A stretch of DNA of 32,000 nucleotides from Desulfocapsa sulfexigens DSM 10523 (GTDB lineage Bacteria > Desulfobacterota > Desulfobulbia > Desulfobulbales > Desulfocapsaceae), in assembly GCF_000341395.1 (NCBI RefSeq), contig NC_020304.1:150001-182000 (forward strand), in the 5' to 3' direction; not shown here. The text below is the continuation of a report on this DNA, generated by a model with database tools.

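Follow-up and report, generated by a model that had tools for sequence, protein, structure and literature searches.

One polypeptide of the cluster, labeled at NCBI only as a "DegV family protein," combines a complete fatty-acid-binding domain of the DegV/FakB type with the N-terminal and middle domains of the fatty acid kinase FakA (Dak2 and FakA_M), and this fusion is kept within the cluster at 21 of the 25 evaluable loci. Beside the cluster lies a small membrane protein, with two to three hydrophobic segments, that matches no Pfam family; in other loci, 23 ORFs for it adjoin the cluster, some preceding ACP2 and the others following PS-DH.

The longest ORFs of GT2 and FakA-DegV overlap by 151 nt and those of the ligase and B12-rSAM_b by 65 nt, and in both pairs, the true starts probably lie further downstream. 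For ACP2, the start is most likely the ATG at 21312 rather than the TTG of the 135-aa ORF. The 0.6-kb gap between the divergent hotdog and DUF4070 radical SAM (rSAM) genes has no Rfam match and presumably carries promoters for both directions; its sole ORF was excluded from the profile and synteny searches.

Features in the window and in compared loci
Feature	Sequence	Position	Strand
PAS kinase	Window	5202-6308	+
FakA-DegV fusion	Window	7902-9638	-
GT2/FakA-DegV overlap	Window	7902-8052	
Ligase/B12-rSAM_b overlap	Window	11244-11308	
Hotdog/DUF4070 rSAM gap	Window	15092-15700	
Sole ORF of gap	Window	15302-15709	-
DUF4070 rSAM and hybrid sensor kinase	Window	15701-20940	+
Small membrane protein	Window	31756-32000	-
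Small membrane protein	L084	10664-11026	
Anammox Cluster I B12-rSAM (scored against NCBIfam TIGR04072)	L085	14037-15494	
Anammox Cluster I B12-rSAM (scored against NCBIfam TIGR04072)	L086	14032-15492	

Two insertions between the operons occur in D. sulfexigens alone: one pairs the DUF4070 rSAM with a hybrid sensor kinase, and the other is a PAS kinase. Two further hybrid kinases stand immediately left of the cluster (left flank, L083). This pattern suggests lineage-specific regulation.

A full copy is present in the purple sulfur gammaproteobacterium Allochromatium palmeri DSM 15591 (NZ_WNKT01000030.1); its proteins share 41-79% identity with their Desulfocapsa counterparts. The GC content of the locus (59%) suggests horizontal transfer, followed by amelioration; contamination is another possible source.

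Elsewhere, the layout itself varies. A short variant, perhaps the minimal functional module, has only an ACP, KS-CLF, the TIGR04072 rSAM and a CrtI-like flavoenzyme (Ca. Electrothrix communis, L001/L002; Desulfopila sp. IMCC35006, L030; and locus L035), with an extra AAA-ATPase gene inserted in the cable bacterium. Another, without KS-CLF, occurs in Smithella-type loci (L067, L052, L074 and others) and L050; here a FabA-like gene lies upstream, the TIGR04072 rSAM and ApeI-DH are separated by a polysaccharide deacetylase, and PS-DH is followed by PlsY. In L050, the deacetylase forms one protein with a UbiE-like methyltransferase. The two enzymes recall Kuste3351 and Kuste3347 from the second cluster in Kuenenia.

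In some TIGR04072-like proteins, the N-terminus is extended by 300-360 residues (P0294, 754 aa; P0295, 807 aa). The B12-rSAM of anammox Cluster I falls outside TIGR04072 (85-87 bits vs. a cutoff of 360), despite that family's NCBIfam short name, rSAM_ladder_B12; its closest relative in the window is B12-rSAM_b.
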